Shown: positions 5,999 through 29,794 of the stretch, one piece after another
Position numbering within the stretch: the stretch's first letter is position 1
Layout: every line of letters begins with the position of its first letter
Assembly (NCBI RefSeq): GCF_044324875.1
Contig: NZ_CP172185.1
DNA: 64,000 nt
Strand: one strand, 5' to 3'
DNA from: Escherichia coli
GTDB taxonomy: Bacteria > Pseudomonadota > Gammaproteobacteria > Enterobacterales > Enterobacteriaceae
Position numbers and translations under genes: made by a program
Notes under the pieces: generated by a model
Told to the model about the DNA's origin: nothing
Database searches by the model: none
The model's input: the letters and a program-made list of their open reading frames with translations, nothing else

Positions 5999-6100
5999 CG
6001 GCTGACCCCGTCAGAAGGCGGCGTGCCGGGCGTTCCGGTTACGGTTTTCCGTTCCCCTTACACCCGGCACCCACCGCTTTTTTTTCTGAAGGAGCGATTT

Positions 6101-6595
6101 ATGAGCATGGTCGCAAGACCGGAAGCCGCCCCTGCGCGGGACGACATCACCGACACCGACGACGGCGACGCCACCATCACCGCCGGGGCATTCTGGCCGG
6201 AGATTGTGCTGCGGGAGCTGCGCCTTGCAGTACGCCTGCCGGGCCGCATCACCTCCACACGTCTGGCGCACGTTGCCACGGGAGCCGTGGCTCACGTCAC
6301 GCGGGAGCTGGAAGAGTGGCAGCAGGCGCAAATCGCCGCAGGATTCAGCACGCTGACAGACGTACCTGCCGCCACCATCAACGGTGAGAGCGTCAACGCC
6401 TGGCATTACCGGCACGCCGTCTACAGCGCCACCCGTGCCCTGATTCTGGAACGCTGGCGGGATGTGGACACCACCGACAAGGGGGACCGCAGGGCTGACG
6501 CACTGGATGAGCAGGTGGAGGACCTGTGGCGCGACGTGCGCTGGGCGATTTCCGATATTCTCGGCTTTCCCCGTCTTTTTGTGGAGCTTGTGTGA
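6101..6595 (+). CDS. L: Head completion/stabilisation protein, P2 gpL-like
   Basis: Start set at ATG 6101 preceded by GGAG; ~164 aa; position after M. Confidence 0.7.
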   Translation: MSMVARPEAAPARDDITDTDDGDATITAGAFWPEIVLRELRLAVRLPGRITSTRLAHVATGAVAHVTRELEEWQQAQIAAGFSTLTDVPAATINGESVNAWHYRHAVYSATRALILERWRDVDTTDKGDRRADALDEQVEDLWRDVRWAISDILGFPRLFVELV

Positions 6596-6792
6596 TGAAA
6601 GTGAGGGCACTTCAGGGGGACACCGTCGATTTACTCTGTTTCCGGCACTACGGCACCACGCAGGGGGTGACCGCACAGGTACTTGATGCCAATCCCGGGC
6701 TCTGCCGCCAGGTAATTCTGGAAGCGGGACAGGAGGTGGAGATGCCGGAGCCGGAAAGGAAACAGCAACGCGAAAAGGTAAAGCTATGGTGA
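6595..6792 (+). CDS. X: Small tail protein, P2 gpX-like (65 aa)
   Basis: MKVRALQGDTVDLLCFRHYGTTQG...; ATG overlaps L stop (tgATG); position as P2 X. Confidence 0.65.
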   Translation: MKVRALQGDTVDLLCFRHYGTTQGVTAQVLDANPGLCRQVILEAGQEVEMPEPERKQQREKVKLW

Positions 6793-7076
6793 CGGGATTT
6801 TTTCAGCGCGTCAGTGACTGGATCACCTTCTGGGCGTCAGTGACGGCAACAACCATTGGTGTTATGACCATCAGCGAAAAAATTGCGCTGGCCGGGCTGC
6901 TTCTGGGGTCACTTTCCGCCATCCATGCCTGGCGCCACCGCAGGCGTACGGAGCAGGCAATGAAGCGCCGCAATGACCTTATCGCCCGCATCCTGGCACG
7001 TTCAGAAAACCGCGAGCTTCACGACGGTGAGAGACGGGCACTGGACAGCGTGAGACAGGACGGAGAAGAGCGGTGA
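6786..7076 (+). CDS. Holin (two predicted TM helices then highly charged C-tail; pinholin-like)
   Basis: WITFWASVTATTIGVMTI and IALAGLLLGSLSAIHAW hydrophobic segments followed by RHRRRTEQAMKRRND...; immediately upstream of the endolysin. Confidence 0.6.
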   Translation: MVTGFFQRVSDWITFWASVTATTIGVMTISEKIALAGLLLGSLSAIHAWRHRRRTEQAMKRRNDLIARILARSENRELHDGERRALDSVRQDGEER

Positions 7077-11077: not shown

Positions 11078-11798
11078 CAGGAAAAAAACAGACAGCGCAC
11101 AGCACAGTACATCACTGCTTCCACCGTCCGCAGGGCCATTCATGCGCGCCACAGAGGCGACAGGAGTACGCATCAGTGCCATACCGGTGGACGCCGACAC
11201 CCTGTGGTCGCCGGACCGCTGCCCTGCTCACCTCCTGCCCTACCTTGCATGGGCATGTTCCGTTGACCGCTGGGACCGCAACTGGCCGGAAGAGACCAGA
11301 CGACAGGTGATTGGCCAGTCCTGGAAGGTACACCGCCAGAAAGGAACGGTCAGCGCACTGAGGGAAACAGCCGCAGCATTCGGTTATGAGATGACCATCA
11401 GTGAATGGTGGGAGCATGGAGGGCAGCCGGGCACCTTTACTGTGACCATCGGGGCAGACACTCAGGGCATCGGCCCTGAAACATGGCTGGAGATGGAGGA
11501 TCTGCTCAATGATGCACGTCCGGTTTCACGTCATATGACGGGGCTTTATGCCGCCCTGCGTTCTGGCGTGACGGTTTACTGCGCTGCGGGAGCAGGCTGT
11601 GATGAGCTTGTAACCATTCACCAGAAAGCTCGCGCCTCCCTGGCGGGCCAGGTGACCATCATCGCAGCAGGAGACACACACACAACCGACAGTGTGACCG
11701 TACTGCCGGGGGTTCCGTCAGGTATGTACGGGGAGATCTGTATCCGTACCGGCGCAGGTATATTCGTGAGTGAGATTGTGGAGGTTATCACCTTATGA
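11070..11798 (+). CDS. I: Tail/baseplate protein, P2 gpI-like
   Basis: Start set at ATG 11070 (MSDRKK...) overlapping J 3' end; directly precedes tail fibre gene. Confidence 0.7.
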   Translation: MSDRKKTDSAQHSTSLLPPSAGPFMRATEATGVRISAIPVDADTLWSPDRCPAHLLPYLAWACSVDRWDRNWPEETRRQVIGQSWKVHRQKGTVSALRETAAAFGYEMTISEWWEHGGQPGTFTVTIGADTQGIGPETWLEMEDLLNDARPVSRHMTGLYAALRSGVTVYCAAGAGCDELVTIHQKARASLAGQVTIIAAGDTHTTDSVTVLPGVPSGMYGEICIRTGAGIFVSEIVEVITL

Positions 11799-12910
11799 AC
11801 ACCGATTTTTATTCCGTTCTGACGGATGCCGGGCTGAAAAAACTGGCGGCAGCCGCAGCATCAGGGAATCAGATGAAAATCACCCATATGGCTGTAGGCG
11901 ACGGAAACGGAAAAGCCGTAACACCCGGCAGGGCCGACACCAGGCTTGTCAGGGAAAAATACCGTGCGCCACTGAACAGTCTGGAAGAAGACACAGAGAG
12001 ACCGGGGCATGTTATCGCAGAAATGGTGATACCTGAAAAACAGGGAGGGTGGTGGATCAGAGAATTCGGATTATTCGACGAAGACGGCGGAATGATTGTT
12101 ACAGGCAAATTTCCTGACACATGGAAGCCTGCACCTGGTCAGGGTGGAGCACGACTGATATCAGTGAAAGTGGTTGTGGCAGTATCACATACAGAAAACA
12201 TTGTGCTGAAAGTGGATCCTTCTGTTGTCATGGCAACCCGGGAATGGGTGAACACAAAAGCAGAGCAGTTAAAGAAAGAGCTCAGACAACCTGATGCAAC
12301 CACCAAAACAAAAGGCATTGTTCAGCTTAGCAGTGACATCAACAGCACCTCTGAAACGCAGGCTGCCACCCCCGGAGCGGTAAAAGCCGTGAATGATCGT
12401 GTGGACGGAAAACAGGACGCGGATCCCACGCTCACATCTCTGTCCGGGAAAAATGCACAGCAACTGAGGCAGCTTCTGGGGCTGGGCACGCTTGCCACCC
12501 TGAACAGGGGCACCGGTTCAGGGAATGTGCCGGACATGAGTCACTTTGCGAGTAAAAAAGCAGACTACGGTTACCAGTGTTTTCCTGGCGGCATAATGAT
12601 CCAGTGGCTGCGGATCCCCTCAGACCACACAGGAAGAGCTGTCAGTCAGGAAGCCCGGGTGGCACTAAGCGGCGTGCGACTGTTTTCAGTGGAGGGTAAC
12701 TGGAACGGTAATAACATGATTAAGACCCTGGCAAACTACCAGTGGCCGAGAGTTTTCGGGGCAATTTATGCGACCGTTGCAACCAGGAATCACGGATCTG
12801 CATGGCGAGTATATCCGGTGTCCGCGAACAAGGATGTGCGTGTCGTATCCATTGCCTGGGCGGGAGAAGGTACAGATGACACTTATGTGGTTGGGGTGGG
12901 AAGAGTATGA
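11795..12910 (+). CDS. H: Tail fibre protein, P2 gpH-like N-terminus with short divergent C-terminal domain
   Basis: N-terminus ...LKKLAAAAASGNQMKITHMAVGDGNG... and internal QLSSDINSTSETQAATPGAVKAVND match the recalled conserved P2 H regions; only 371 aa. Confidence 0.75.
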   Translation: MNTDFYSVLTDAGLKKLAAAAASGNQMKITHMAVGDGNGKAVTPGRADTRLVREKYRAPLNSLEEDTERPGHVIAEMVIPEKQGGWWIREFGLFDEDGGMIVTGKFPDTWKPAPGQGGARLISVKVVVAVSHTENIVLKVDPSVVMATREWVNTKAEQLKKELRQPDATTKTKGIVQLSSDINSTSETQAATPGAVKAVNDRVDGKQDADPTLTSLSGKNAQQLRQLLGLGTLATLNRGTGSGNVPDMSHFASKKADYGYQCFPGGIMIQWLRIPSDHTGRAVSQEARVALSGVRLFSVEGNWNGNNMIKTLANYQWPRVFGAIYATVATRNHGSAWRVYPVSANKDVRVVSIAWAGEGTDDTYVVGVGRV

Positions 12911-13353
12911 AAATGATGTGGTCGCCGTCTGTGGGCGGTTTTTTTGGTGAAGACAGCAGCCATATACCGGAAGATGCGGTGGAGGTTGATGAATCGATGT
13001 GGAGCAGGATGATGGAGGGACAACTTGAGGGAAAAATTATCGTTAACGGCCCTGACGACCTGCCTGTTCTGGAAGAGCGTCCGGGACCGGGGCCAGAAGA
13101 ATACCGGCATCAGGCTCGCCTTGAGCTTGCTGACCTTCGCCGACAGGGGCTGGAACACATAGAGTCGATGCGCTGGCGTGACAAAGCGGTCATGAACAGG
13201 CTGGGAGAAGAGGAGAAGCAGGAGTATAACGCCTGGCTTGACTGGCTCGACGCGCTTGACAGTACGGACATATCAGGGGCACCGGATGTGGTGTGGCCGG
13301 TGATGCCCGTCACGGTGGTTCCTGAACATCCTCAGAAAAAATTGCCGGAGTGA
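12907..13353 (+). CDS. G: Tail fibre assembly chaperone, P2 gpG-like
   Basis: 148-aa ORF overlapping H stop (ATGA); position after tail fibre gene. Confidence 0.65.
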   Translation: MKMMWSPSVGGFFGEDSSHIPEDAVEVDESMWSRMMEGQLEGKIIVNGPDDLPVLEERPGPGPEEYRHQARLELADLRRQGLEHIESMRWRDKAVMNRLGEEEKQEYNAWLDWLDALDSTDISGAPDVVWPVMPVTVVPEHPQKKLPE

Positions 13354-13360
13354 ACAGCCT

Positions 13361-13386
13361 CCGGCCTGAGACTGCACTCAGGCCGG
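13361..13386. terminator. GC-rich hairpin between convergent G and U genes (candidate terminator, weak U-tract)
   Basis: Perfect 10-bp inverted repeat ccggcctgag/ctcaggccgg with 6-nt loop; followed by aaattctgtt on plus strand. Confidence 0.4.
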
Positions 13387-13394
13387 AAATTCTG

Positions 13395-13841
13395 TTATCT
13401 GCCAGCATTGCGGATGATACCCGAAAGCATATCAGACACCGACGGCATCATTCGCTCCCGCAAATCCTCATCACAGCGTTCCATACTGACAGTGAACTCA
13501 ATTTTTTTGGCCTTACCGTGGCGGTCAAGTTCGCTTCGCGTTGTGCGGACAGCCGTTATCACATACATGCCGTATATCTGCCCCACACCGTCAATCAGCG
13601 GCCATGGGCGGCCAGTGTAAGCCTGCGTCGTTAAAAGGCTGAGGGAAACCTCACCGCCGGTAATTTCGGGATAAAGCACACCGGACAACGTGATCTGGTC
13701 GTCACCCGCCCCGATATACTGCCAGCTGGCCGAACGATTGATGCGTTCATTTTTAACGTGGCGCCAGGTTTTATTATGTTGCAGTTGTTGATGAGGCAGC
13801 GTACGCAACTCAAAAACAAACATGCCGTAAATCATCATCAT
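13395..13841 (-). CDS. U: Tail protein, P2 gpU-like
   Basis: 148-aa ORF downstream of tape measure on minus strand. Confidence 0.75.
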   Translation of the reverse strand: MMMIYGMFVFELRTLPHQQLQHNKTWRHVKNERINRSASWQYIGAGDDQITLSGVLYPEITGGEVSLSLLTTQAYTGRPWPLIDGVGQIYGMYVITAVRTTRSELDRHGKAKKIEFTVSMERCDEDLRERMMPSVSDMLSGIIRNAGR

Positions 13842-13852
13842 GCGAGGTACTC

Positions 13853-16800
13853 CTAATCTCTGTCACGGAAACTACCGACTGTCTGGCGGATACGGCGTTC
13901 CATTTCCGCACGGACGGCATCACCCACCATTTTTGCCAGTTCGCGCGGGTTTTGCGTGTGAACATCATGCAGGTGAATATGCAGTTCGCCAGTTAATCCC
14001 CATGGTGCCGGATCACTCTGACGCGGTCGGGGCGATGCGGGGGATATGGGCTGGCGCACAGCCTCAACCACCGGACGGGATGTTGCCGTTACGACGGGTG
14101 TCATTACCGGCGCAATATTGCCGGACACTACCGGTTTAATTACCGGGGAGAGCGTCGGTATAACATCGCCAGCCATAACCGGTTTGATCGCTGGCGAAAT
14201 AACCGGAGCAACAGACTCAGCCATGACGGAACTGACAGGCTGAGGCGCTCTCACTATGCCAGCATCGATAACCAGCATGAGCTCGCGTACTGCCTCAAGG
14301 ACAGGACGGGATATTGCCGCCATCACTGGTGTCATTAGCGGGGAGAACGTCGGCATGACATCGTGAGTCATAACCGGTTTGATCACCGGCGAAACCACCG
14401 GCGTAATATTACCGGACAGTACCGGACGGACGACCGGAGGAATAACCGGCACATTATTCACGGACACCACCGGCTTCACGACCGGCGACACGTTCGCCGT
14501 GGTGGATATCAGCGGCGAAACACTGACAGGCGGTGGCGCTGGCAGCGGTGGCAACGAAGGCACACTGACCGACGGCACCTGCGGCAGTCTGACAGGTGGC
14601 TCACTGACACTACCCGGTAACAGGGAAGCTGCGCGGTTAAAGCGTTCCTCCTTCCACTCACCACGAACGGCCAGCGCTTCCGGCAGGTTTTTAAAGATAA
14701 TATCGCCGGGACCAGTGCGTTTTTTCGCCTGTTTCGCCTCATCCAGCAGGCCACCGGTGTTATCGACGATTTTATTCAGGCGACGCATGGTGCCGGTATT
14801 CTCCCCCGTCAGCGGAGCAGTTGCTGCAGGTGCAGGTACTGGCGGCTTTTTGTCTTTGTCATTTTGCGGCGGATTAATGACATTAACATCCGCCAGGAGC
14901 ATGGCGGCTTTCTCGTTCAGCAGCTCCTTCTGCTTCAGCTCTTCCGCCTTTTTCCGGGCGCGCTCAACCGCCGACGGAATCAGCCCGAGTTTTTCCAGCA
15001 CCCGGGTTAATGAGTCAATCAGCAGCGTAACCGGACCGGTCACCAGATTGCTGATAAACTCCCCGACCTTCTGCCCGAACGTCCGCCCGGCTTCCGTGCA
15101 CTTGTCCAGCTCATCCTTTGTTGTGCTTACCGGCGCGAACAAATCCACGAACCACTGCCACACACGCCCGATTGTCTGCCCGACATACTCAAACAATGGT
15201 CCCAGTGGTGCCACAGCCTCGCGCAGTGGCGTAAGCCCCTGCCACAGGCCGGACAAGAACCCGCCCACGACAGCCTTCAGCTGGTCCCAGTGCCGCCAGA
15301 TAAGCACTGCCGCACCGACCAGTGTCGCCACCACAAGGCCCACCGGACTTAACAGAAAACCCAGCGCCCCGCCAAGTGCGCCCACCGCACCACTCACCAT
15401 CCCCCACAGTGCGGGCAGACCTGACAGTCTGAGCGCCAGTATTCCGATACCGCGCCCCAGTGAAATCAGTGCGCCGCCAGGTGAAGTGAACGCAGCCAGC
15501 AGACCACCACGCAGCGCGCCAAGTCCCGCCTGCACACCACGAAGCCGCCCCGCAACTACGCCCAGCAGTGCAGCAAACCGTCCGGCACCGGAGGTGATAC
15601 CGACAAACAGCACGCGCCAGCCACCGATACCGCCCAGCGGACCACCGAGTACGCCGCGCAGCTGCGTCAGTAACGGCAGCGCACGACCGAGGCCGGATGT
15701 GCCGGTCAGCAGGGCAAACCCAAGACGCAGTTTTGCCAGCGGCCCCATCAACACACCAGTGGCAAGTGACAGCGCCCCCATGGCCGCAACCGCAGCCAGC
15801 AGTGCACCACCGGCAATCAGCAGTTGTTTTGTCAGTTCAGGGTGCGCCTGGGCCAGCGCGGTGACTTTCGCAATAACCCGGGTGAACGACTGCGTGACAG
15901 AACGCAGCGGCCCGTCAACGAGGTCAGCGACACGGATACGCAGCCCTTCCCATGCGCTGTTCAGTGATTTCAGGTCGCCGTCCAGGTTGTCCGCCATGAT
16001 TCTGGCGTTTTCTTCCAGTTCGCCGTTCGCTGCCTGAATCTCACGCGTCAGGCGCGGCAGGTTTTTTTCGCCTGCCTGTTCAACCAGGCTCATCAGGGAG
16101 ACATACGCCTCCTGCCCGGCAATATCTGAAAAGAACGAGACTTTTGCCGCGTTACCGTATTTACGGGTGGCCTGATACAGCTCATACAGGATATCTTCCA
16201 TCGGGCGCATGTTCCCGTAAGCATCCTGCGTTTCCACGCCCAGCTGTTTCAGCGCCTTTGCTGCCGCTTTAGGCGGGTTCACAAGGCGGGACAGACTGGA
16301 GCGCAGCGCCGTACCAGCATCACTGCCACGTATCCCCATCGACCCAAGCAACCCGGTCATGGCTGCGGTCTGTTCAAGAGACAGACCGAGTGAGGCGGCG
16401 ACCGGTCCCGTATATTTCATCGTCTCACCAAGCCCGCGCAGGTCGGTATTGGTGCGGGTGAACGTTGCGGCCAGCGTGTCACCCACGCGGTTCATCTGGT
16501 CGGCAGACAACCCGAACTGCGTAAGGATATTTGAGCTGATATCGGCCGTCTGACCGAGGTCCATGCCGCTGGCCGTTGCCAGATTCAGCACGCCGGGAAG
16601 AGCCGCCTGTATCGCCTGCGGCGTGAACCCCGCCATGGCAAGGAACGCCTGACCGCTGGCAGCATCACCTGCGGTAAACTGCGTTTCGGAGCCGAGTTTA
16701 AGCGCCTGTTCGCGCAGCGCCTTAAACTGCGGACTGTTTTTGTCAATACGGGTCAGCGCCTGGACGCGCGACATCTCCTTACCAAAACTGACCGCCGGTT

Positions 16801-17431
16801 GCAGGAAACGCCCGGCCGCATAGCCACCTGCCGCTGCCGTGCCGACTGCCGTAAATCCACCCGCTTTCAGTTTTCCCGCCATCTCCTGAGCGCGGAAATA
16901 TTGCTGGCGTGCCTGCGTGACGCGTGCCAGAGTCTGCCGTTCACGTTCCAGCTGTTCGTTGTATTGCTGTGTTCGCCGTATGGCCTGTTGAATGGTGTTG
17001 TCACTGCCGGAAAGCGCAATACCGTGACGCCGCAGCTCACCACCCAGTTCGCGCATTCGCTGAACTTCACGCGCACGGACCTCATTGAGACGCTCAAGTT
17101 TGAGGCTCAAATCGTTCATCAGCTTTTTCTGTTTGTCAGACAGCACGGTTCCGGCGCGCTGAATTTGCTGAAGTGCGCTTAACTGGCGTTGTGCCCGGGC
17201 AATGCCGTTTCCGGCCTTGTTTGCAGCCTCGCGGGCGCGATCAAATGAACGGGCGTGGCGTTCCAGGTTTTTGATCGCACCCTGCGTTCTCTGTATGGAG
17301 TCGCCAAGCTGGCCCATCATGCGACGGGCGTTTTCGGTGGGACGGGTCAGCCTGTCAACAGCGCTGAAGGCGACCCGTATATCAAGCGTTTTCATGCTCT
17401 GCGTTCCCGCTGCGAAGGGCCGCCCGCTCAC
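13853..17431 (-). CDS. T: Tail tape measure protein, P2 gpT-like (1192 aa)
   Basis: Very long ORF; coiled-coil N-terminal part, Gly/Ala-rich hydrophobic central segment, Pro/Val-rich repetitive C-terminus; follows E/E' as in P2. Track start is GTG 17431 with SD GAGGTGG; alternative ATG at 17395. Confidence 0.85.
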   Translation of the reverse strand: MSGRPFAAGTQSMKTLDIRVAFSAVDRLTRPTENARRMMGQLGDSIQRTQGAIKNLERHARSFDRAREAANKAGNGIARAQRQLSALQQIQRAGTVLSDKQKKLMNDLSLKLERLNEVRAREVQRMRELGGELRRHGIALSGSDNTIQQAIRRTQQYNEQLERERQTLARVTQARQQYFRAQEMAGKLKAGGFTAVGTAAAGGYAAGRFLQPAVSFGKEMSRVQALTRIDKNSPQFKALREQALKLGSETQFTAGDAASGQAFLAMAGFTPQAIQAALPGVLNLATASGMDLGQTADISSNILTQFGLSADQMNRVGDTLAATFTRTNTDLRGLGETMKYTGPVAASLGLSLEQTAAMTGLLGSMGIRGSDAGTALRSSLSRLVNPPKAAAKALKQLGVETQDAYGNMRPMEDILYELYQATRKYGNAAKVSFFSDIAGQEAYVSLMSLVEQAGEKNLPRLTREIQAANGELEENARIMADNLDGDLKSLNSAWEGLRIRVADLVDGPLRSVTQSFTRVIAKVTALAQAHPELTKQLLIAGGALLAAVAAMGALSLATGVLMGPLAKLRLGFALLTGTSGLGRALPLLTQLRGVLGGPLGGIGGWRVLFVGITSGAGRFAALLGVVAGRLRGVQAGLGALRGGLLAAFTSPGGALISLGRGIGILALRLSGLPALWGMVSGAVGALGGALGFLLSPVGLVVATLVGAAVLIWRHWDQLKAVVGGFLSGLWQGLTPLREAVAPLGPLFEYVGQTIGRVWQWFVDLFAPVSTTKDELDKCTEAGRTFGQKVGEFISNLVTGPVTLLIDSLTRVLEKLGLIPSAVERARKKAEELKQKELLNEKAAMLLADVNVINPPQNDKDKKPPVPAPAATAPLTGENTGTMRRLNKIVDNTGGLLDEAKQAKKRTGPGDIIFKNLPEALAVRGEWKEERFNRAASLLPGSVSEPPVRLPQVPSVSVPSLPPLPAPPPVSVSPLISTTANVSPVVKPVVSVNNVPVIPPVVRPVLSGNITPVVSPVIKPVMTHDVMPTFSPLMTPVMAAISRPVLEAVRELMLVIDAGIVRAPQPVSSVMAESVAPVISPAIKPVMAGDVIPTLSPVIKPVVSGNIAPVMTPVVTATSRPVVEAVRQPISPASPRPRQSDPAPWGLTGELHIHLHDVHTQNPRELAKMVGDAVRAEMERRIRQTVGSFRDRD
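14060..14500. repeat. Imperfect tandem duplication (~230-bp unit) inside the 3' part of the tape measure gene
   Basis: gcctcaaccaccggacgggatgttgccg...gtgtcattaccgg (14061-) vs gcctcaaggacaggacgggatattgccg...gtgtcattagcgg (14292-); encodes repeated ...PVIKPVM..DV.PT.SP...SRPV.EAVR... units. Confidence 0.6.
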
Positions 17432-17908
17432 GCCAGGCGACCACCTCGCCGGGATCCATCAGGAAGATTTCAGCGGGAGACCAGTTGAAAATAACGGCGA
17501 TATCCGCCACAAAGTCTTCAATATGCTCAAAGGGCACGACGGTTATCAGCCTGCCGTCGCCGCCACGCTCTTCCCGCCAGAGTCCTGACCGGCCAAAAAA
17601 TTAACCGCCACCCCGCACAGCTGAATAAAATCAGCGGACCCCATGCGCTTAAGCAGAACCTCGTCCAGTCGCGGCGAAGTGACGCGCGGGAGTAACTCAA
17701 ACATCGCGTCCGTTTTCATGTTCAGCACGTCAAGCAGTGACAGCCCGCGCAGTGAACCGGCCTGCTGTACAGCAGGCGTGATTTCCACATACGTGATTTT
17801 TTTGTTACCGAGCACAAGGGGCGTTTTCAGCGTCACGCCGCGCTCACTGGTCACGTCCGCCGCATCAGCACCGTCAGTAACAGGGGCAACAACCGGATTT
17901 TCTTTCAT
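17382..17908 (-). CDS. E+E' fusion product from programmed -1 ribosomal frameshift (predicted ~175 aa)
   Basis: After slipping on T TTT TTG the -1 frame stays open for 70 codons (GRSGLWREERGGDGRLITVVPFEHIEDFVADIAVIFNWSPAEIFLMDPGEVVAWRERAALRSGNAEHENA) to TGA at 17382-17384, overlapping the start of T; triplet-by-triplet manual translation. Confidence 0.6.
17546..17908 (-). CDS. E: Tail assembly chaperone, P2 gpE-like (zero-frame product)
   Basis: 120-aa ORF ending ...VNFLAGQDSGGKSVAATAG; the NFL codons are AAT TTT TTG (slippery site). Confidence 0.75.
   Translation of the reverse strand: MKENPVVAPVTDGADAADVTSERGVTLKTPLVLGNKKITYVEITPAVQQAGSLRGLSLLDVLNMKTDAMFELLPRVTSPRLDEVLLKRMGSADFIQLCGVAVNFLAGQDSGGKSVAATAG
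17594..17602 (-). other. Slippery heptanucleotide T TTT TTG (codons AAT TTT TTG) for the E/E' -1 frameshift
   Basis: Plus strand ccaaaaaatt at 17593-17602; reverse complement AATTTTTTGG in the E reading frame. Confidence 0.65.
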
Positions 17909-17958
17909 GCATAAAACCTCAAATCAGGGGGCGACGCCGCGCGCCGCCGTGGAAAACA

Positions 17959-18477
17959 TTAACCACCAAGACCAATCGCCGAGCGCACGCGGTCCGGGAA
18001 GACGCTTTTGCCGTCCTTGCGTTCGATGTGGTTCAGTAAATCAATCTCCAGCACCGGACGGTCGTTAATGCTGAGTTTGTAGTAGGTACTTTTGACCGCA
18101 TAGGTGTGAGACGTGACCTCACCCTGTTTGGCCTCCCCGGTATCAATTTCCGTCACGCGACCGCGAAGCTCAATCTCGTACAGGTCACTCTGTTCTTCAT
18201 CGTTGTAGTACTCACCGACAAAGCGCAGCAGCGTACCGTCAATCGTTCCGCCGTACTTGAGGAACAGTTCGCGGGTCGGCCCGCCCATGGTGAAACTCGC
18301 ATCCAGCGCGCCGTCATCCAGGCCAAGGTCGATATTTACTGCACCGGCCATACCACCACCGCGATAGGCTTCCGTTTTACGGGTCAGTTTGGGGGGCGTG
18401 AAGCCGGTCACCCTGCCAATCTGGTTCACCCCGTCAGTAAACAGCGTGAACACCCTGAGATTTTTTGGTACGGCCAT
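17959..18477 (-). CDS. FII: Tail tube protein, P2 gpFII-like
   Basis: 172-aa ORF downstream of sheath gene; size and context. Confidence 0.85.
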   Translation of the reverse strand: MAVPKNLRVFTLFTDGVNQIGRVTGFTPPKLTRKTEAYRGGGMAGAVNIDLGLDDGALDASFTMGGPTRELFLKYGGTIDGTLLRFVGEYYNDEEQSDLYEIELRGRVTEIDTGEAKQGEVTSHTYAVKSTYYKLSINDRPVLEIDLLNHIERKDGKSVFPDRVRSAIGLGG

Positions 18478-18779
18478 TAAGCACCTCCAAGCGTCGCAAA
18501 TGCAGGACCAAAGAATTCATCAGTAAACGTCTGGTAAAGTTCCATATCCTCAAGCGGCGGAACGGGCGTGTACTTGTAGCGGATACGCACGCGTCCCTGA
18601 CGAAGTTCCGTGGTGCTGTTATCCACCACGTCATACCAGCACTCCGCACCAACGAGACGTCCTGACGTAACCAGCGCATCCAGTTTTGCGCGAATTGCGC
18701 TTAACACGTCTTTCACATTAGCAGGGGTCAGCGGGGCATCAATCGTTTCAAACTGCGCTTCCGCAACAGAATCAGCCAG

Positions 18780-18786
18780 CACCTGA
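18780..18786. repeat. Target-site duplication CACCTGA (left copy) of the IS21-family element
   Basis: Identical 7-mer at 21426-21432; reconstructed FI reading frame needs exactly one copy. Confidence 0.7.
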
Positions 18787-18988
18787 TGCAAAATGGCATC
18801 TGAATCGATCGCAGTTTGGCATTCGAATCGATCATGATTTGGCATCCATCTCCGATCACAGTTTGGCATCACAATCGATCACGATTTGGCATGCTTCCGA
18901 TCATTGATTGGCATCCTGCCAGTCACTCCGGGAATTAACTCTTTTCACCACAGTCTCCATTGCCGTGTTTAAACCAGTGGAGACGTCA

Positions 18989-20554
18989 ATGTCCAGAAAG
19001 AGAAAATCCAGGAGCACTATGGAAACCTGTTTTAAGATCCTTCAGCTCAAGTTCGACAAGAAGCTGACTAACCGTTGTATCGGACTGACGTTACACATCA
19101 GCGCCTCAACCGTTTTTGAGGTTCTTGCCCGCTTCAAAGCCTCTTCTCTGTCATGGCCATTACCTGCTGATATATCCCATGACACGCTGGAGAAACTCAT
19201 TTTTCCGCCCAAAGACACCTTTGCATCAGAGCTTGTAATGCCTGACATGTTGTACTTCGATACGGAAATGAGAAAACCAGGTGTGACGCGGCAACTGTTG
19301 TGGATGGAATACAAGGCACAGGCGGGTAACAAAGCGATGGGATACTCGCACTTCTGCCGTTGCTACCGGGAGTGGAAAAAAACGCGACGTCTCTCCATGC
19401 GCCAGGAGCATCGTGCCGGCGAAAAGCTTTTTATCGACTTCTGTGGTCCTACGGTTCCTGTTATTAATCCGGACACCGGTGAGATACGCCGCGTGGCAAT
19501 CTTCGTGGCCGTAATGGGGGCGTCCAACTATACCTACGTTGAAGCGTGCGAAGGTCAGGACATGATGTCATGGTTAAATGCCCACAGCCGTTGCCTGACC
19601 TTCCTGGGCGGCGTACCGAAGCTGCTCATCCCCGATAACCTCAGAAGCGCAGTGAAAAAGGCCGATCGATATGAGCCTGTCATCAACGACAGTTATCAGG
19701 CACTGGCTGAGCACTATGGCACGGTTATCATCCCGGCCCGACCACGCAAACCTAAAGATAAACCAAAAGCAGAAAACGGCGTCCTCATCGTTGAACGATG
19801 GCTTCTTGCCCGCATCCGTAATGAAACCTTCCACACGCTCAGGGCGCTGAATGCGCGCCTTAGGGAGTTACTGACAGACATGAATAACCGGCCAATGAAG
19901 GGGTACGGCAATCAAACCCGTGCAGAACGCTTCCGCATACTGGATGCGCCAGCACTCTCTCCGCTGCCTCTGGCACCTTATGAATACACGGAATACAAAG
20001 CTGTGAAGGTTGGCCCTGACTACCACGTTGAATATGCCCGTCACTGGTACTCCGTTCCACACGAACTGGTCGGTCAGCGTCTGTCACTGAAGGCGGGGCA
20101 GTCGGTGGTACAGCTCTGGCACAAGGGGCAGTGTGTGGCGCAACATCCGCGCAGCACACATGAATATAAACACACAACCAATCCGCTTCACATGCCAGAG
20201 CGCCACCGGCAGCACGGGACATGGACACCGGAACGCCTGATCGAGCAGGGAAAACGTACGGGCCCGTCCACAGGCCGGGTGGTTGAATCCATGCTGAAGG
20301 CAAAACCCCATCCGGAACTGGCTTATCGTGCAGTTCTGGGGCTGCTGGCACTTCAGAAAAAATACGGCCCGGAACGGCTGGAAAAGGCCTGTTACGTTGC
20401 CCTGCACTATAACGCCCCTGACAGACGCTTTATCGACAATCTGCTGCGTCACCATCGGGAGAACCTGGAGCTTCCATTATCCCGCCAGGGCGAACAACAT
20501 CCGGCATATGCTTCAGAGCATGAAAACCTGCGTGGTCCGGGCTACTACCACTGA
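18989..20554 (+). CDS. istA: IS21-family transposase IstA
   Basis: Start set at ATG 18989 after GGAG (track begins at a TTG at 18908); N-terminal HTH-like segment, ~520 aa; immediately followed by istB. Confidence 0.8.
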   Translation: MSRKRKSRSTMETCFKILQLKFDKKLTNRCIGLTLHISASTVFEVLARFKASSLSWPLPADISHDTLEKLIFPPKDTFASELVMPDMLYFDTEMRKPGVTRQLLWMEYKAQAGNKAMGYSHFCRCYREWKKTRRLSMRQEHRAGEKLFIDFCGPTVPVINPDTGEIRRVAIFVAVMGASNYTYVEACEGQDMMSWLNAHSRCLTFLGGVPKLLIPDNLRSAVKKADRYEPVINDSYQALAEHYGTVIIPARPRKPKDKPKAENGVLIVERWLLARIRNETFHTLRALNARLRELLTDMNNRPMKGYGNQTRAERFRILDAPALSPLPLAPYEYTEYKAVKVGPDYHVEYARHWYSVPHELVGQRLSLKAGQSVVQLWHKGQCVAQHPRSTHEYKHTTNPLHMPERHRQHGTWTPERLIEQGKRTGPSTGRVVESMLKAKPHPELAYRAVLGLLALQKKYGPERLEKACYVALHYNAPDRRFIDNLLRHHRENLELPLSRQGEQHPAYASEHENLRGPGYYH

Positions 20555-20570
20555 CAGAAGGAACAACAGT

Positions 20571-21326
20571 ATGAGTGATAACCTGTTAAACAAACTGACC
20601 CAACTGAAACTCCCGGCGATGGCCGGGAGCCTGATACGGCAGCGGGAAACGCCTCAGACCTACGACGAACTGTCGTTCGAGGAAAGGCTGACGCTGCTGG
20701 TTGATGACGAGCTTCTGAGCAGGGAAAACAGCCGTGTGGCACGGTTGAGAAAAAATGCCGGCCTGAAATACCAGGCAACACCGGAAGGGCTGCGCTATCC
20801 GGCCTCAAGAGGTCTGCGGGCTGAACAGATGAGAGAACTGCTGAACGGCCACTACATAACCCACAGGAAAAACCTGCTGATAACCGGTCCGACAGGATGT
20901 GGCAAGAGCTGGATAGCCAATGCGCTGGGCGAACAGGCATGTCGACAGAAACACAGCGTCCGGTACTGTAGAACCGGGCGATTACTGGAACAACTGGCTC
21001 AGGGACGTGTTGATGGCAGCTGGCTGAAATATCTGAAACAGTTGCAAAAAATACAGGTTCTAATCCTGGACGATCTGGGGCTGGAACAGTTAAGTAACGC
21101 CCAGTGTAATGACCTTCTGGAGCTCATAGAGGATCGTTACGGACAAAGCAGCACGATAGTGGTAAGCCAGTTCCCGGTAGATAAATGGCATGGTCTGATG
21201 GAGAACCCAACAACAGCAGATGCCATCCTGGACAGACTGGTACATAACTCACACCGAGTGGTCCTTCAGGGAGAGTCACTGAGGAAAAATCCCCCGGTAG
21301 TGGAAAGCAGCGAAAAAACGCGTTAA
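20571..21326 (+). CDS. istB: IS21-family ATP-binding helper protein IstB
   Basis: Start set at ATG 20571 after AAGGAA; Walker A GPTGCGKS and Walker B ILDDLG motifs, 251 aa. Confidence 0.85.
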   Translation: MSDNLLNKLTQLKLPAMAGSLIRQRETPQTYDELSFEERLTLLVDDELLSRENSRVARLRKNAGLKYQATPEGLRYPASRGLRAEQMRELLNGHYITHRKNLLITGPTGCGKSWIANALGEQACRQKHSVRYCRTGRLLEQLAQGRVDGSWLKYLKQLQKIQVLILDDLGLEQLSNAQCNDLLELIEDRYGQSSTIVVSQFPVDKWHGLMENPTTADAILDRLVHNSHRVVLQGESLRKNPPVVESSEKTR

Positions 21327-21425
21327 AAAGCGGTAGAAAAAGTTAAGTTCCCGGTTGATCGAATGGATGCGAATCGCTGATCGGACTTCGATGCCAATCC
21401 GTGATCGAATAGAGCGGAATACGCA

Positions 21426-22566: not shown

Positions 22567-23658
22567 ATGACCGACCTGTTAATCAACGTTCCGTCACCGG
22601 ATATCGAAATCACCATCAACAACAACAGACTCCGTAACGTCACGGAGCGGCTCATGACGCTGTCACTGACCGACAACCGGGGCTTTGAGGCGGACCGCGT
22701 CACCCTGACCATTGACGACGCGGACGGGCAGCTTCAGCTGCCACAGCGCGGCGCACGCCTGAACGTGATGATTGGCTGGCGCGGGGAGGCGCTGGTTAAC
22801 AAGGGTGTCTACATCGTTGATGAAGTGACGTGGGAAGGCCCGCCGGACAAACTGACCATCACCGCCAGCAGCGCCGATTTTCGCGAAGAGTTCAACGTGA
22901 AGCGTGAAGTCTCCTGGCACGACGTGACGGTAAAACAGGTTGTGTCAGCCATCGCGCACCGCTACGGCCTGAAAGCACAGATAAGCGATATCCTCATGGA
23001 TATCGAAATTGACCACGCAGACCAGACCGAAGAGAGCGATATATCCTTCCTGACCCGCATGGCTGAAATGCTGGGTGCGATTGCCACCGTAAAAAACGGC
23101 AGCCTGTTATTCATTCTGCCGGGTGGCGGAACCGGGCCGGACGGAAAAGCCCTGCCTTCGTTCGCCATTACCCGCAGCAGCGGCGACAGTCACCGCTTTC
23201 GCATTGCTGACCGTGATGCGTATACGGGGGTCCGGGCGCACTGGCTCGATCTGAAGTTCGGGCAAAAGAAAAAAGTGAACGTGAAGCGACGCAGGGAAGC
23301 CGGGAAACAGAAACAGGAGAAGAGCAGCAGCCGGGAAGGTGATTACATGGAGGGCGCGGAAGGGAACGTCTACGTTCTGCGCAGGACTTACCAGAATGAA
23401 GAAACCGCACGACGTGCAGCAGCTGCAAAGTGGCAGGAACTACAGCGGGGCGCGGCATCATTCTCCATCACGCTGGCGCGCGGTCGTGCCGACCTGTACC
23501 CTGAAATGCACGGCAGGGTAACAGGTTTTAAAAGCGAGGTGGACAATCAGGACTGGATTATTGCCAGGGTGGAGCACAGCATAGATGAAAGCGGCTTCAC
23601 CACACAACTGGAGCTGGAAGCGAAAATCCCCGAATGGATAGCAGATTCAGGCGGATAA
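22567..23658 (+). CDS. D: Tail protein, P2 gpD-like
   Basis: 363-aa ORF; size and position before ogr; leader CACGAGGGC shared with O gene leader. Confidence 0.8.
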   Translation: MTDLLINVPSPDIEITINNNRLRNVTERLMTLSLTDNRGFEADRVTLTIDDADGQLQLPQRGARLNVMIGWRGEALVNKGVYIVDEVTWEGPPDKLTITASSADFREEFNVKREVSWHDVTVKQVVSAIAHRYGLKAQISDILMDIEIDHADQTEESDISFLTRMAEMLGAIATVKNGSLLFILPGGGTGPDGKALPSFAITRSSGDSHRFRIADRDAYTGVRAHWLDLKFGQKKKVNVKRRREAGKQKQEKSSSREGDYMEGAEGNVYVLRRTYQNEETARRAAAAKWQELQRGAASFSITLARGRADLYPEMHGRVTGFKSEVDNQDWIIARVEHSIDESGFTTQLELEAKIPEWIADSGG

Positions 23659-23701
23659 AATTAAAATGAGCCATCTCCACTCAGCCAGATAAGGAGAAGC
23701 C

Positions 23702-23953
23702 ATGTTCCGTTGTCCCCTGTGCGGTGCATCCGCACGTATCCGCACCAGTCGCAATGAAAATGATTCAGGCACAGTTCGCCTGAAGTACTACCAGTGCAAT
23801 AACCTCGAATGCGGGATCGGCTTTACCACACTGGAGGGTTTTAACAAATTCACATCAAAACGCGCCCCGTCGCCGCAGGGTACAGAGCGGATACCGTGGG
23901 AAGATTTTCCGGGATCTCACAGGGGGAATGCTCAGATGAATCTTGATATTTAA
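23702..23953 (+). CDS. ogr: Ogr/Delta-type zinc-finger late transcription activator
   Basis: MFRCPLCGASARIRTSR...YYQCNNLECG: CxxC...CxxxxC arrangement and N-terminal similarity to recalled P2 Ogr. Confidence 0.8.
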   Translation: MFRCPLCGASARIRTSRNENDSGTVRLKYYQCNNLECGIGFTTLEGFNKFTSKRAPSPQGTERIPWEDFPGSHRGNAQMNLDI

Positions 23954-24002
23954 GAACAATAATCAGGTTGAGAGGACATCATAAGGCAAGTAGATTAACG
24001 GC

Positions 24003-24097
24003 AGATACTTTCCCGCAACCACGGGCAAGTATTTAATTATCCATGATGAAATATGACCTAAATTGTTTTTTGCCCGCCGGAAAGCGGGCATTTTTTT
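24003..24097 (+). ncRNA. Candidate small RNA cassette 1 (promoter TTGAGA-17-TAGATT at 23968-23996; hairpin + U7 terminator 24072-24097)
   Basis: Exact 17-bp spacer; stem GCCCGC/GCGGGC then TTTTTTT; no convincing RBS or ORF; also serves as terminator after ogr. Confidence 0.35.
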
Positions 24098-24311
24098 ATT
24101 CTTTTGTGGTTATGGGGTCATCAGGAACCACGTGCAGATTATATTTTTGTTTTTTTGGCGTTCCTCCGGCAGCAACGAGTTCATCAATAAGACACTGACA
24201 CGCCTGAACATCCCGGGCATGTCTTAGTTTCACCTTTATTGATTTAACCTTATCCTCACCGGAGGAGAAATGCAGTTCAATCTCAATATCGTTTCTTCGG
24301 AACAATCTCAT
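24096..24311 (-). CDS. Hypothetical 71-aa protein (no family recognised)
   Basis: ATG preceded by AGGGGG; MRLFRRNDIEIELHFSSGEDKVKSIKVKLRHARDVQACQCLIDELVAAGGTPKKQKYNLHVVPDDPITTKE; AT-rich upstream region with TATAAT-like elements. Confidence 0.4.
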   Translation of the reverse strand: MRLFRRNDIEIELHFSSGEDKVKSIKVKLRHARDVQACQCLIDELVAAGGTPKKQKYNLHVVPDDPITTKE

Positions 24312-24483
24312 ACGCCCCCCTGAATATATCAGAAATGCTAGTATCGAAAAATGAGAAAACAGTTAGACAGGAGAAACATATTAACACAAATCATTTATAC
24401 CTATAGATGAAATTATAATTTCATTCATGAATATGATAGATAACTATATTGTGAACAAAATGAAAAATGGCTAAATTAAAAAT

Positions 24484-24564
24484 GGGCATGGAGGAATGCC
24501 TCGTAATCAGTAATACATGATCCATACTTCCTTGTTTTGCCCGCCGGAAAGCGGGCATTTTTTT
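24484..24564 (+). ncRNA. Candidate small RNA cassette 1b (promoter TTGTGA-17-TAAATT at 24449-24477; terminator 24539-24564)
   Basis: Same terminator sequence as cassette 1; body shares ATACATGATCCATAC-like segment with the other cassettes. Confidence 0.3.
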
Positions 24565-24668
24565 GGCGGTTACCATCGCCTCACCTTCCTGGTTCACACA
24601 AAGCAACCCTGATTTTCCATGAAAACTTCAGGGTTGAGCCAAAAGCACAAAGACAGTAGATTAACCAA

Positions 24669-24767
24669 GGGTACCCGCCACCTGCCAACAGGAACGGTAT
24701 CCAGTACGTATTAATGACTGACAATTCACATTGCTGTTTTGCCCGCCAGAAGGTGGGCATTTTTTTG
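24669..24767 (+). ncRNA. Candidate small RNA cassette 2 (promoter TTGAGC-17-TAGATT at 24634-24662; terminator 24741-24767)
   Basis: Terminator stem GCCCGCC/GGTGGGC carries substitutions relative to cassettes 1 and 1b that keep pairing; 5' body ACCAAGGGTACCCGCCACCTGCCAACAGGAA. Confidence 0.4.
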
Positions 24768-24871
24768 GCAGTTATCATGGACGCACCTTCATGACACATA
24801 TTAAGCAGACCTGATTTTTCCATGAAAAATTCATGGTTGAGACAAAAGCACAAAAACAGTAGATTAACCAC

Positions 24872-24969
24872 GGGTGCCTGCCACCTGACAACAGGAAGGG
24901 GTGTCCATTATCCATGATATACAAACGAAAAGTCTTGTCTTTTGCCCGCCGTTGCGCGGGCTTTTTTTT
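24872..24969 (+). ncRNA. Candidate small RNA cassette 3 (promoter TTGAGA-17-TAGATT at 24837-24865; terminator 24944-24969)
   Basis: Terminator stem GCCCGC/GCGGGC with different loop (CGTTGC); 5' body ACCACGGGTGCCTGCCACCTGACAACAGGAA ~85% identical to cassette 2. Confidence 0.4.
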
Positions 24970-25366
24970 ATCCAAGAACCCTGTCTGCAGCAACACGCGC
25001 CAGAAATCCAGAGCGGCTACCGTATTCAGGATGAGACTCAACGAACTGATCAATGCGACGAATAAGCAGAGATGGCAGGGTAACATTGATTTTTTCCGAT
25101 TTCCCCATCAGGCGGGACACATCCACCTCAACGAGCGCCCACACTGCATCACTGTATTCAGGATCTGATTGCCATTCATCAAGATTTGTAGCGACAGGGA
25201 TAGACTCACCAGATTCAACCAGTAATTCTACGTGTGCCTCAATGGCTTCACGGGCACTGTCTACCGCATCCTGAAAACTATCACCGCCAGAAAAACAGCC
25301 GGGCAGATCTGGGACGCGAACACCAAAAGATGAATCCCCCCGGTCAATAGCGATTGCATATAACAT
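24968..25366 (-). CDS. hicB: HicB-family antitoxin (N-terminal HicB fold plus C-terminal ribbon-helix-helix)
   Basis: 132-aa ORF MLYAIAIDRGDSSFGVRVPDLPGCFSGGDSFQDAVDSAREAIEAHVELLVESGESIP...KINVTLPSLLIRRIDQFV; GGAGG 5 nt before ATG; 22 nt downstream of hicA. Confidence 0.7.
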   Translation of the reverse strand: MLYAIAIDRGDSSFGVRVPDLPGCFSGGDSFQDAVDSAREAIEAHVELLVESGESIPVATNLDEWQSDPEYSDAVWALVEVDVSRLMGKSEKINVTLPSLLIRRIDQFVESHPEYGSRSGFLARVAADRVLG

Positions 25367-25388
25367 TGAGACCTCCAGAAGGTGGGGC

Positions 25389-25568
25389 TTACAGCCCCGC
25401 CTGTTTCTTAATACTTTTTAAAGTTGGTAAAGGTATATCTTTTTGAGGGTGTTTTACCGTTACCAGCCCCTTCTTTGTCGGATGTTTGAATTGATGATGA
25501 CTCCCCTTAACCCTAACAAGATACCATCCATCCGCCTCTATCATTGCTATTGCACTTTTGCTATCCAT
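25389..25568 (-). CDS. hicA: HicA-family mRNA-interferase toxin (59 aa; absent from ORF track because <60 aa)
   Basis: Manual translation MDSKSAIAMIEADGWYLVRVKGSHHQFKHPTKKGLVTVKHPQKDIPLPTLKSIKKQAGL; matches the recalled HicA pattern GW...GSHH.F.HP...G.VTVPHP.KDL..GTL.SI.KQAGL. Confidence 0.65.
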   Translation of the reverse strand: MDSKSAIAMIEADGWYLVRVKGSHHQFKHPTKKGLVTVKHPQKDIPLPTLKSIKKQAGL

Positions 25569-25588
25569 CCCCCCGTACTCCGTCTTTC

Positions 25589-25617
25589 GTTGTTGGAGTT
25601 ATTATAACCCCAACAAC
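25589..25617. promoter_or_regulatory. Palindrome GTTGTTGG-N13-CCAACAAC upstream of hicA (candidate operator)
   Basis: Perfect 8-bp arms read directly; GGAGTTATTA also repeated at 25595 and 25636. Confidence 0.35.
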
Positions 25618-25767
25618 TAGTCAAAGCAAGGGTTCGGAGTTATTAGAGTTATAGAATAATTGACTGCCTCCCCAAAACTGCGGCAAGAAAAAACCACTGA
25701 CCACGGTCAATTTGTGGATCATGAATTAATTTTTATTTATAAATCAATGCATTATACAAAGAAAAAA

Positions 25768-25787
25768 GGCCGCAGAGCGGCCTTTTT
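25768..25787 (-). terminator. Intrinsic terminator downstream of ihfA (bidirectional hairpin)
   Basis: ggccgcagagcggcc stem-loop flanked by A-run upstream and T-run downstream. Confidence 0.6.
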
Positions 25788-25799
25788 AGTTAGATCAGA

Positions 25800-26099
25800 T
25801 TACTCGTCTTTGGGCGAAGCGTTTTCGACCCGGCTTTTTAACTTCTGCCCGGGTCTGAAGGTCACCACGCGCCGTGCTGTAATGGGAATATCCTCGCCCG
25901 TTTTCGGGTTACGTCCCGGGCGTTGATTCTTATCACGCAGATCGAAGTTACCAAAACCAGAGAGTTTCACCTGTTCGCCGTTTTCCAGAGCGCGACGGAT
26001 CTCTTCGAAAAACAGTTCAACCAGTTCTTTGGCATCCCGCTTGCTAAGCCCAAGCTTATCAAACAGATATTCTGACATTTCAGCTTTTGTAAGCGCCAT
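25800..26099 (-). CDS. ihfA: Integration host factor alpha subunit
   Basis: 99-aa translation [92 protein letters not shown]... recognised as E. coli IHF-alpha. Confidence 0.95.
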
Positions 26100-29531: not shown

Positions 29532-29554
29532 TTAATTTTTTCAAAACGCGCATA

Positions 29555-29579
29555 CAAAAAAAGCCTCCACTGGGAGGCT
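29555..29579 (-). terminator. pheS attenuator terminator
   Basis: agcctcc-ac-tgg-gaggct hairpin followed by U-run on the minus strand, between pheM and pheS. Confidence 0.55.
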
Positions 29580-29627
29580 TTCAGGCGCTGTTTTCCGTTT
29601 CTCTTCTCACGCGCTAGCCTCCTGGAG

Positions 29628-29672
29628 TCAGGTGCTAAAGTAAAAAAAGAAGCGGAAAATAGCAGCATTCAT
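29628..29672 (-). CDS. pheM: pheST operon leader peptide (Phe-rich, 14 aa)
   Basis: Manual translation [14 protein letters not shown]; classic attenuation leader. Confidence 0.7.
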
Positions 29673-29794
29673 TGCTTGCGTTACCTTTTGGTACTTTTCA
29701 AAAGACCTTTATTGAAAAGGCTACGGCGATAAAAGTCAATGTTTTGATGGCGTTGAAACGAAAAGAGGGAGACTAGCTCCCTCTTTCAACTGGC

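Follow-up and report, generated by a model that had tools for sequence, protein, structure and literature searches.

A prophage in Escherichia coli carries four short promoter-terminator cassettes in a row, directly behind the last conserved phage gene, which raises the question of what such an array encodes. The prophage lies in a 64,000-nt stretch of contig NZ_CP172185.1 (the window), of which positions 23400-25600 were read directly, supplemented by consensus scans. The cassettes (units A, B, C, and D) are all on the plus strand and span 23968-24969. The array is real, non-random, and non-coding. Judging from its sequence, we consider it probable (about 60%) that the cassettes are paralogous, independently transcribed small regulatory RNAs (sRNAs) of the Hfq-binding type with diversified pairing regions. 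The cassettes are carried between ogr and the phage attachment site (attP) as cargo of a Xuanwuvirus-like prophage (P88-like, P2-family), which would make them "sRNA morons".

Anatomy of the cassette array

Each cassette consists of a -35/-10 pair with a 17-nt spacer, a non-coding body of 80-98 nt, and a GC hairpin followed by T7-8. The array is preceded by ogr, the last conserved phage gene ahead of the cargo region. The transcript lengths given below (about 95, 80, 98, and 98 nt for units A-D) assume a start 7 nt past the -10 hexamer.

23702..23953, plus strand: ogr, ogr/Delta-like zinc-finger late activator (open reading frame, ORF; PHROG 603; RefSeq annotation of the identical region)
23968..24097, plus strand: unit A; -35 TTGAGA 23968-23973, -10 TAGATT 23991-23996, hairpin 24071-24090, T7; predicted RNA ~24003-24097, 95 nt, with 5' hairpin, AU-rich single strand (UUAUCCAUGAU...), U-rich stretch, hairpin, and U7
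24449..24564, plus strand: unit B; -35 TTGTGA 24449-24454, -10 TAAATT 24472-24477, hairpin 24538-24557, T7; predicted RNA ~24484-24564, ~80 nt, with 5' hairpin GGGCAUGGAGGAAUGCC, single strand ending in the anti-Shine-Dalgarno-like CUUCCUU, terminator hairpin, and U7
24634..24766, plus strand: unit C; -35 TTGAGC 24634-24639, -10 TAGATT 24657-24662, hairpin 24740-24759, T7; predicted RNA ~24669-24766, 98 nt, with two-tier 5' hairpin, single strand with UCACAUUGCU (RyhB core motif), hairpin, and U7
24837..24969, plus strand: unit D; -35 TTGAGA 24837-24842, -10 TAGATT 24860-24865, hairpin 24944-24961, T8; predicted RNA ~24872-24969, 98 nt, with 5' hairpin as in unit C, single strand starting with AUUAUCCAUGAU as in unit A, hairpin, and U8

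The motifs common to the units are confined to the array. The promoter pattern TTGWG-N18-TARATTA has four matches in the 64 kb, all of them in the array (0.04 expected from shuffled sequences), and the same is true for the terminator pattern TTTGCCCGCC-N7-GGGC (four matches, 0.05 expected). None of 100 shuffles attained four copies of these shared patterns. The reading and the scans thus confirm the four plus-strand cassettes with 17-bp spacers, non-coding bodies, and hairpins followed by T7-8 that had been proposed in a first-pass annotation of the sequence. That annotation listed TTGAGA three times as -35 hexamer, which needs correction (TTGAGA twice, TTGAGC once, and TTGTGA once); its -10 hexamers stand (TAGATT three times, TAAATT once). 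The ~205-bp tandem units which it described are also recovered. Units B, C, and D are spaced by 202 and 203 bp, and Tandem Repeats Finder reports a period of 203 bp at 78-84% identity which covers all three.

A coding signal is absent. When the repeats of units C and D are compared in their stop-free frames, the differing codons are synonymous or non-synonymous in ratios of 0:9, 2:7, and 0:9. No Shine-Dalgarno sequence precedes the ORFs that begin within the units, and these ORFs read across the terminators. Coding on either strand was rejected on these grounds.

The predicted fold of each unit has a hairpin at the 5' end, then an open AU-rich middle, and finally the terminator, with z-scores of -3.4 for unit A (-27.7 kcal/mol), -2.4 for B, -2.3 for C, and -0.7 for D. 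Enterobacterial sRNAs bind Hfq through a module in which a U-rich stretch is followed by a hairpin and a U-tail. A candidate module of this type (UUUU-GCCCGCC...GGGC-U7-8) is present in all four units. The hairpin of unit A is also the first terminator downstream of ogr; it is conceivable that a form of RNA A derives from the 3' untranslated region of ogr.

Three further features are located between the units.

24096..24311, minus strand: ORF71, a 71-aa orphan ORF, convergent with unit A and divergent from unit B
24407..24424, no strand assigned: perfect 18-bp palindrome ATGAAATTATAATTTCAT in the divergent control region of ORF71 and unit B, read from the sequence; candidate operator
24604..24636, no strand assigned: dyad CAACCCTGA-N15-TCAGGGTTG with inner TTTTC-CAT-GAAAA, overlapping the -35 of unit C; candidate operator

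An imperfect copy of the unit C dyad is found at ~24807-24839, ahead of unit D and overlapping its -35, and the unit C dyad is kept in all C/D-type copies from elsewhere. Palindrome and dyads occur nowhere else in the prophage, the immunity region included; a link to the immunity region was rejected because the dyads are confined to the array. This suggests candidate operators for some regulator acting at the promoters of units B, C, and D.

Prophage ends and mobility of the cassettes

The array had initially been placed at the prophage/host junction. This proved incorrect, as the true right end of the prophage is located beyond the hicAB genes which follow the array.

24968..25568, minus strand: hicB (24968-25366) and hicA (25389-25568), type II toxin-antitoxin pair between array and attR; unit D is convergent with hicB
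25758..25782, no strand assigned: attR core AAAGAAAAAAGGCCGCAGAGCGGCC, identical to the ihfA terminator; true right end of the prophage

The 25-bp attR core is duplicated as attL on the btuC side (positions 6521-6545 of the extracted locus L005), and arm-like motifs TGTGG(A/T)C are found inside both prophage ends. The array region is identical in E. coli F374 and in eight other complete genomes; in F374, the prophage extends from beside btuC to ihfA. When the empty site was reconstructed (btuC-core-ihfA), 5120 of 5426 complete E. coli genomes proved to have it in uninterrupted form. This site does not contain any cassette, so the possibility that the prophage-free locus downstream of ihfA might hold a native attB cassette was not borne out. 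The array stops ~790 bp inside the prophage, to the left of the attR core. It follows from the position of the core at the ihfA terminator, from its duplication at both ends, and from the frequency of the empty site that the phage DNA includes hicAB as well as the four cassettes. The prophage boundary is corrected accordingly: the phage integrated in the ihfA terminator and brought hicAB along as cargo, so these genes do not represent a host island. No tRNA or transfer-messenger RNA gene was found at the site.

Rfam reports a match to STnc540 at 25703-25858 (minus strand; 43.1 bits, gathering score 38) which spans the 3' end of ihfA and its terminator. As this match covers the attR core, the phage integrates into the 3' end of a region that is catalogued as an sRNA. 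Integration swaps the sequence downstream of the hairpin in the STnc540 region.

The array is not tied to a single integration site. Prophages inserted between the genes glsA and copA contain an identical array and have a different integrase. Their duplicated core, CTTGACCTTCCCCTTGCTGG, corresponds to the copA promoter, and a 73-aa ORF takes the place of hicAB. Variant arrays followed by hok modules occur in prophages at serS, which have yet another integrase. The array is thus associated with three different att/int modules (ihfA, glsA|copA, and serS), and the cassettes are mobile phage cargo rather than an integration scar or att remnant.

The array is rare: among the 5426 complete E. coli genomes, 30 carry it, many of them of poultry origin. 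A composite locus at serS is present in 25 of these 30, some of which carry a window-type prophage in addition. The composite locus (L004, positions 3050-6850, from E. coli ECCNB12-2; the same in 25 genomes) has an intact prophage end with the order ogr-A-ORF71-B2-D2-hok, where letters with numbers denote variants of the units. Behind it, the cargo region is repeated twice in tandem in decayed form (first B4-C2, then B3-C3-D1b), and a further hok, which is degenerate, and a 73-aa ORF come next. In the remnants, the ORF71 copies are truncated or frameshifted, and most cassettes have retained intact promoters and terminators. The tandem partial copies look like remnants of serial integration, which raised the number of cassettes to about nine at this locus; they are still phage cargo. 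Strains which also carry the serS locus have up to ~13 cassettes per genome.

Beyond E. coli genomes, true arrays were detected by pattern scans on three IMG/VR contigs and five metagenome contigs, the other matches in these collections being attributable to chance. BLASTN of the array returned no match among 50,697 INPHARED phage records and 72,556 PLSDB plasmids. A pattern scan over 100,044 species (one genome each) did not detect an array but only unrelated terminators of sRNA type, for example that of RyhB from Intestinirhabdus alba. The nearest described phages are P88-like members of Xuanwuvirus (Peduoviridae), with ~75% nucleotide identity in gpD and ogr. These phages have ogr directly followed by hok, methyltransferases, or other cargo, then by the integrase, and they lack the cassettes. 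As the P88-like relatives hold other cargo there, the interval between ogr and attP is a slot for alternative cargo, of which the array is one form.

The window prophage was also compared with the otherwise near-identical prophage of isolate F374 (NZ_OY754371.1). The two diverge at ~11313-21425, in the tail-fibre and tape-measure region, with a net difference of 1431 bp, which indicates mosaic exchange between related prophages.

Unit variants and competing explanations

Ten distinct unit variants were collected from E. coli genomes, IMG/VR, and metagenomes (A, B1-B4, C1-C3, D1, and D2). The promoter pattern TTG(A/T)G.-N17-TA(G/A)ATT is kept in all ten, with spacers that differ at up to 7-8 of the 17 positions. 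Likewise, all ten keep UUUUGCCCGCC-N7-GGGC-U7-8, with variable loops. Types A, B, and C/D have 5' hairpins which are unrelated in sequence and occupy the same position. The succession of 5' hairpin, open middle, and terminator is predicted for every type in the window and for most variants from elsewhere. Most variants share a loose core, UAUC(A/C)AUGA, behind the 5' hairpin, and the middle of the B types ends in CUUCCUU, which is complementary to the Shine-Dalgarno sequence. Pairwise identities differ strongly between the parts of a unit:

C2 and D1: promoter 93%, 5' hairpin 95%, middle 62%, terminator 84%
B1 and B2: promoter 100%, 5' hairpin 96%, middle 62%, terminator 94%
D1 and D2: promoter 69%, 5' hairpin 85%, middle 97%, terminator 90%

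This mosaic suggests conserved scaffolds, exchanged modules, and a single-stranded middle which diverges fast. The patterns among the paralogues fit transcribed, structured RNAs that are under constraint.

Several observations weigh against the sRNA reading. Transcription, Hfq dependence, and targets are what we infer from the features described here. A generic promoter scan shows no enrichment in the region (3 found, 4.0 expected), so the case for the promoters rests on their shared motif. The z-score of the unit D fold is just -0.7, and variant B4 lacks the 5' hairpin. The diversity of the variants is small and largely clonal, so their conservation partly reflects recent common ancestry. The first-pass annotation had taken pairing-preserving differences among the terminators as the signature of selection on RNA structure. 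The differences themselves are there (one G-C changed to G-U, one added C-G pair, and loop changes), but the covariation signature is weak: in six C/D-type copies, none of the 19 predicted pairs has a compensatory double change. The changes in C/D pairs are one-sided and wobble-compatible, and one copy breaks a pair. With few, partly clonal copies and no compensatory changes, the support is architectural and not one of statistical covariation. Translation-start regions of the prophage pair with the units no better than shuffled sequences do, a result subject to the caveat that differences between the window and the reference strain made some of the start coordinates inaccurate. Finally, the middles have no match of at least 20 nt in 50,697 phage genomes; the idea that they are phage-derived spacers was rejected for the same reason.

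Four other explanations were weighed. One of them, raised in the first-pass annotation, takes the cassettes for copies of an sRNA gene that serves as attB, phage-carried and displaced 3' ends having accumulated through serial integration. Terminators are indeed integration sites of P2-family phages, the one used here being that of ihfA, which Rfam scores as the 3' end of STnc540, and the tandem partial cargo copies at serS lie beside Int arm-like motifs, serial integration having multiplied the cassettes there. For the window, this explanation is refuted: the duplicated core (25758-25782) is in no cassette, the empty site of the 5120 genomes is free of cassettes, and two further att sites, served by other integrases, have prophages with the same four cassettes. 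Moreover, neither the 5426 E. coli nor the 100,044 species-representative genomes yielded a native cassette at a host locus. We regard it as extremely improbable. The cassettes might alternatively act in cis, their hairpins serving as terminators or insulators and their transcripts as convergent antisense regulators of ogr, ORF71, and hicAB, the latter two having already been proposed as antisense targets. The arrangement is suggestive in that the stop codons of ORF71 and hicB directly adjoin the hairpins of units A and D, respectively, the former hairpin being also the first terminator behind ogr, and in that unit B is divergent from ORF71 with the palindrome in between. However, units B and C do not have a convergent partner. 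Read in the minus direction, the hairpins are not followed by a U-tract, so that they would terminate ORF71 or hicB poorly. Outside the units themselves, complementarity to ORF71 or hicAB does not reach 10 nt, the form of the array is unchanged where hok or the 73-aa ORF replaces hicAB, and ORF71 decays while cassettes persist. A role in cis is therefore distinctly unlikely, and the antisense proposal is not upheld.

An explanation at the level of DNA would see the units as selfish or neutral repeats: a recombination "linker" for cargo exchange, an operator or promoter decoy which titrates a DNA-binding protein, or simply young duplications. Modules have clearly been exchanged by recombination, and the conserved dyads at the promoters, the low and clonal diversity, and the lack of compensatory covariation are all compatible with this. 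Nevertheless, we consider it rather unlikely, because the hexamers and the exact 17-nt spacing persist despite changes in the spacer sequence, stems and U-tracts of the terminators persist despite changes in the loops, and unrelated 5' hairpins share their position in types A, B, and C/D. Such retained features are expected of transcribed RNAs and not of recombination linkers. The fourth explanation is a sub-variant of the sRNA reading, in which the RNAs would act as anti-sRNAs or sponges by pairing with host sRNAs or titrating Hfq, by analogy with AgvB and AsxR. It has a published precedent which follows the same logic (moron site, conserved 3' part, variable part; PMC4104026), and several RNAs per phage with an Hfq-type module, up to ~13 per genome, would load Hfq. 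The AgvB model, however, scores only 17-20 bits (gathering score 56), based on the terminator, and the units of 80-98 nt with a 5' hairpin differ from anti-sRNAs of 51-60 nt. No sRNA partner was identified, and unit C resembles RyhB rather than its complement. As a specific mode of action, this seems unlikely. The evidence thus favors the remaining proposal of the first-pass annotation, phage-encoded regulatory or anti-sRNA transcripts, in the form of the sRNA reading stated at the outset.

Relation to known RNAs and proposed mode of action

Rfam does not report any family at gathering score within the array, in line with the initial impression that the units do not correspond to a named sRNA. 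Permissive matches (RyhB, AgvB, Hrs1, RprA, and Trp leader; 17-24 bits) are alignments essentially to the terminator. Literature searches did not yield a description of an array-like arrangement.

The most specific resemblance is that of unit C to RyhB (RF00057). Unit C and variants C2/C3 share the core CUCACAUUGCU with RyhB (11 of 11 nt), just upstream of the terminator. It is found at 24722-24735 in unit C and at L004 positions 4994-5005 and 5643-5654 in C2/C3, and is identical in RyhB of strain K-12 and of I. alba. The C-type middle has CTCACATTGCT in common with RyhB. The RNAs are also similar in length (~95 nt) and in their three-part architecture. From the conserved RyhB core GCACGACAUUGCUCACAUUGCUUCC, only the 11 nt of CUCACAUUGCU are shared, and only by the C types. 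Beyond this 11-mer, the C types are only weakly similar to RyhB (local-alignment p 0.006-0.04), and units A, B, and D are not similar to it. The RyhB covariance model scores 17-21 bits over the four units (18 reported for the RyhB-like comparison), based on the terminator, as compared to a gathering score of 55. No GATAAT-like repeats, as in a Fur box, were read in the promoter region of unit C, where the dyad is CCCTGATTTTCCATGAAAACTTCAGGG. ACAUUGCUG could form eight Watson-Crick pairs and one G-U pair with the start region of sodB (UAGCAAUGU). Duplex folding of the whole sRNA with sodB was uninformative, as genuine RyhB itself was not separated from shuffled sequences. The C-type RNA would thus be at most a RyhB seed mimic or a distant derivative, not a member of the RyhB family.

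The closest published analogue is the AgvB/AsxR group (EcOnc01-03; RF02702), Hfq-bound sRNAs from lambdoid prophages of enterohemorrhagic E. coli which are related but not identical (Tree et al., 2014, PMC4104026). They are encoded at a moron site and have conserved 3' regions and variable 5' ends (PMC4104026). The likeness lies in the prophage location at a moron site, in related copies, and in the combination of a conserved terminator-proximal part with a variable part. The lambdoid sRNAs are, however, located downstream of PR', are 51-60 nt long, and occur one per prophage, in convergent pairs. The present array is located between ogr and attP of a P2-family phage, its units have 80-98 nt and a 5' hairpin, and four of them are arranged in tandem in the same orientation. 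The AgvB covariance model scores 17.7-20.2 bits (gathering score 56), with an alignment that rests on the terminator. Membership in this group thus fails on score, length, phage type, and arrangement.

Tandem sRNA paralogues are also known from chromosomes (OmrA/OmrB, PrrF1/PrrF2, and Qrr1-5). These, too, are adjacent duplicated sRNA genes with their own promoter and terminator which have partly diverged. In these families, the seed is the most conserved part; in the array, the middle is the least conserved part and is swapped between scaffolds. Furthermore, they are chromosomal with known regulatory factors, whereas the array is phage cargo.

In their organization, the cassettes correspond to the morons of temperate phages (Juhala et al., 2000, as cited in PMC4104026), being autonomous promoter-gene-terminator units between conserved phage genes which are absent from the closest relatives. 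Classic morons encode proteins; the cassettes would encode only short RNAs, several in a row.

Two other types of system were rejected. Type I toxin-antitoxin modules (Sib/Ibs- or hok/sok-like) do not fit, as the antisense ORFs (MPAFRRAK...) start in the terminator, lack a Shine-Dalgarno sequence, and are not conserved at the protein level; the hok genes of other strains are modules separate from the cassettes. A ToxI-like, CRISPR, or RNA anti-CRISPR-like array was rejected due to the 203-bp period (compared to repeats of ~28-36 nt) and the presence of a promoter and a terminator in each unit. Neighboring toxN or cas genes are not present, and there is no gathering-level match to a CRISPR repeat.

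According to the sRNA reading, a separate sigma-70 promoter would drive each unit, probably in the lysogen; a regulator is hinted at by the dyads which mark the promoters of units B, C, and D. The transcript would end at the intrinsic terminator, the U-rich stretch, hairpin, and U7-8 acting as Hfq-binding module, and the 5' hairpin may stabilize the RNA. The AU-rich middle with the core UAUC(A/C)AUGA could pair with translation-start regions of mRNAs or, as a sponge, with other sRNAs. Duplication and exchange of modules may have diversified the middles, providing several specificities per phage. With its RyhB core motif, unit C could act on RyhB-type targets such as sodB. A far-reaching extension, to which we assign only a small chance, regards the array as a "scaffold plus exchangeable guide" arsenal of programmable silencers directed against host regulons or competing phages. 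One of them would be a RyhB-core mimic without Fur control that hijacks the iron-sparing response, and the arsenal would reside beside toxin-antitoxin cargo in an unrecognized cargo/defense slot of P2-family phages.

If expressed, the cassettes would constitute an undescribed sRNA family without an Rfam model and, according to the searches made, the first found in the ogr-attP slot of P2-family phages. Poultry- and human-associated E. coli would have four members of it per phage and as many as ~13 per genome. The concept of "sRNA morons" would then cover P2-like in addition to lambdoid phages, the array would be a natural case of seed diversification on a fixed scaffold, and the RyhB core motif of unit C would provide a testable link to iron metabolism.

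Within the prophage and the window, complementary 10-mers were confined to self-antisense and scattered chance matches. One 14-nt segment of unit C (CTGACAATTCACAT) recurs identically at 50083-50096, between chbR and chbF and in mRNA sense. For unit C, ~0.04 such matches are expected, with more chance matches expected across all variants, and the identity is probably a coincidence.

ORF71 corresponds to the C-terminal half of a family of 128-133 aa (positions 72-127 of the 128 in the phrog_14142 profile) and likewise matches two proteins of this size, P0009 and P0011. It has no match in Pfam, NCBIfam, or PADLOC. The AlphaFold2 model is of low confidence (predicted local distance difference test score 63.6) and proposes a beta-hairpin plus a helix. 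A longer relative adjoins the end of another P2/HP1-like prophage near raiA, where cassettes are absent. ORF71 does not stand out as an obvious regulator of the cassettes, since it is an orphan without a match in these collections and its longer relatives are found in a cassette-free context.

The window has further gathering-level Rfam matches which are unrelated to the array: an ALIL pseudoknot (frameshift signal of IS3-family transposases) at 47590-47706 on the plus strand, a pheST leader at 29554-29678 on the minus strand, and the ES036 sRNA at 54867-54909 on the plus strand.

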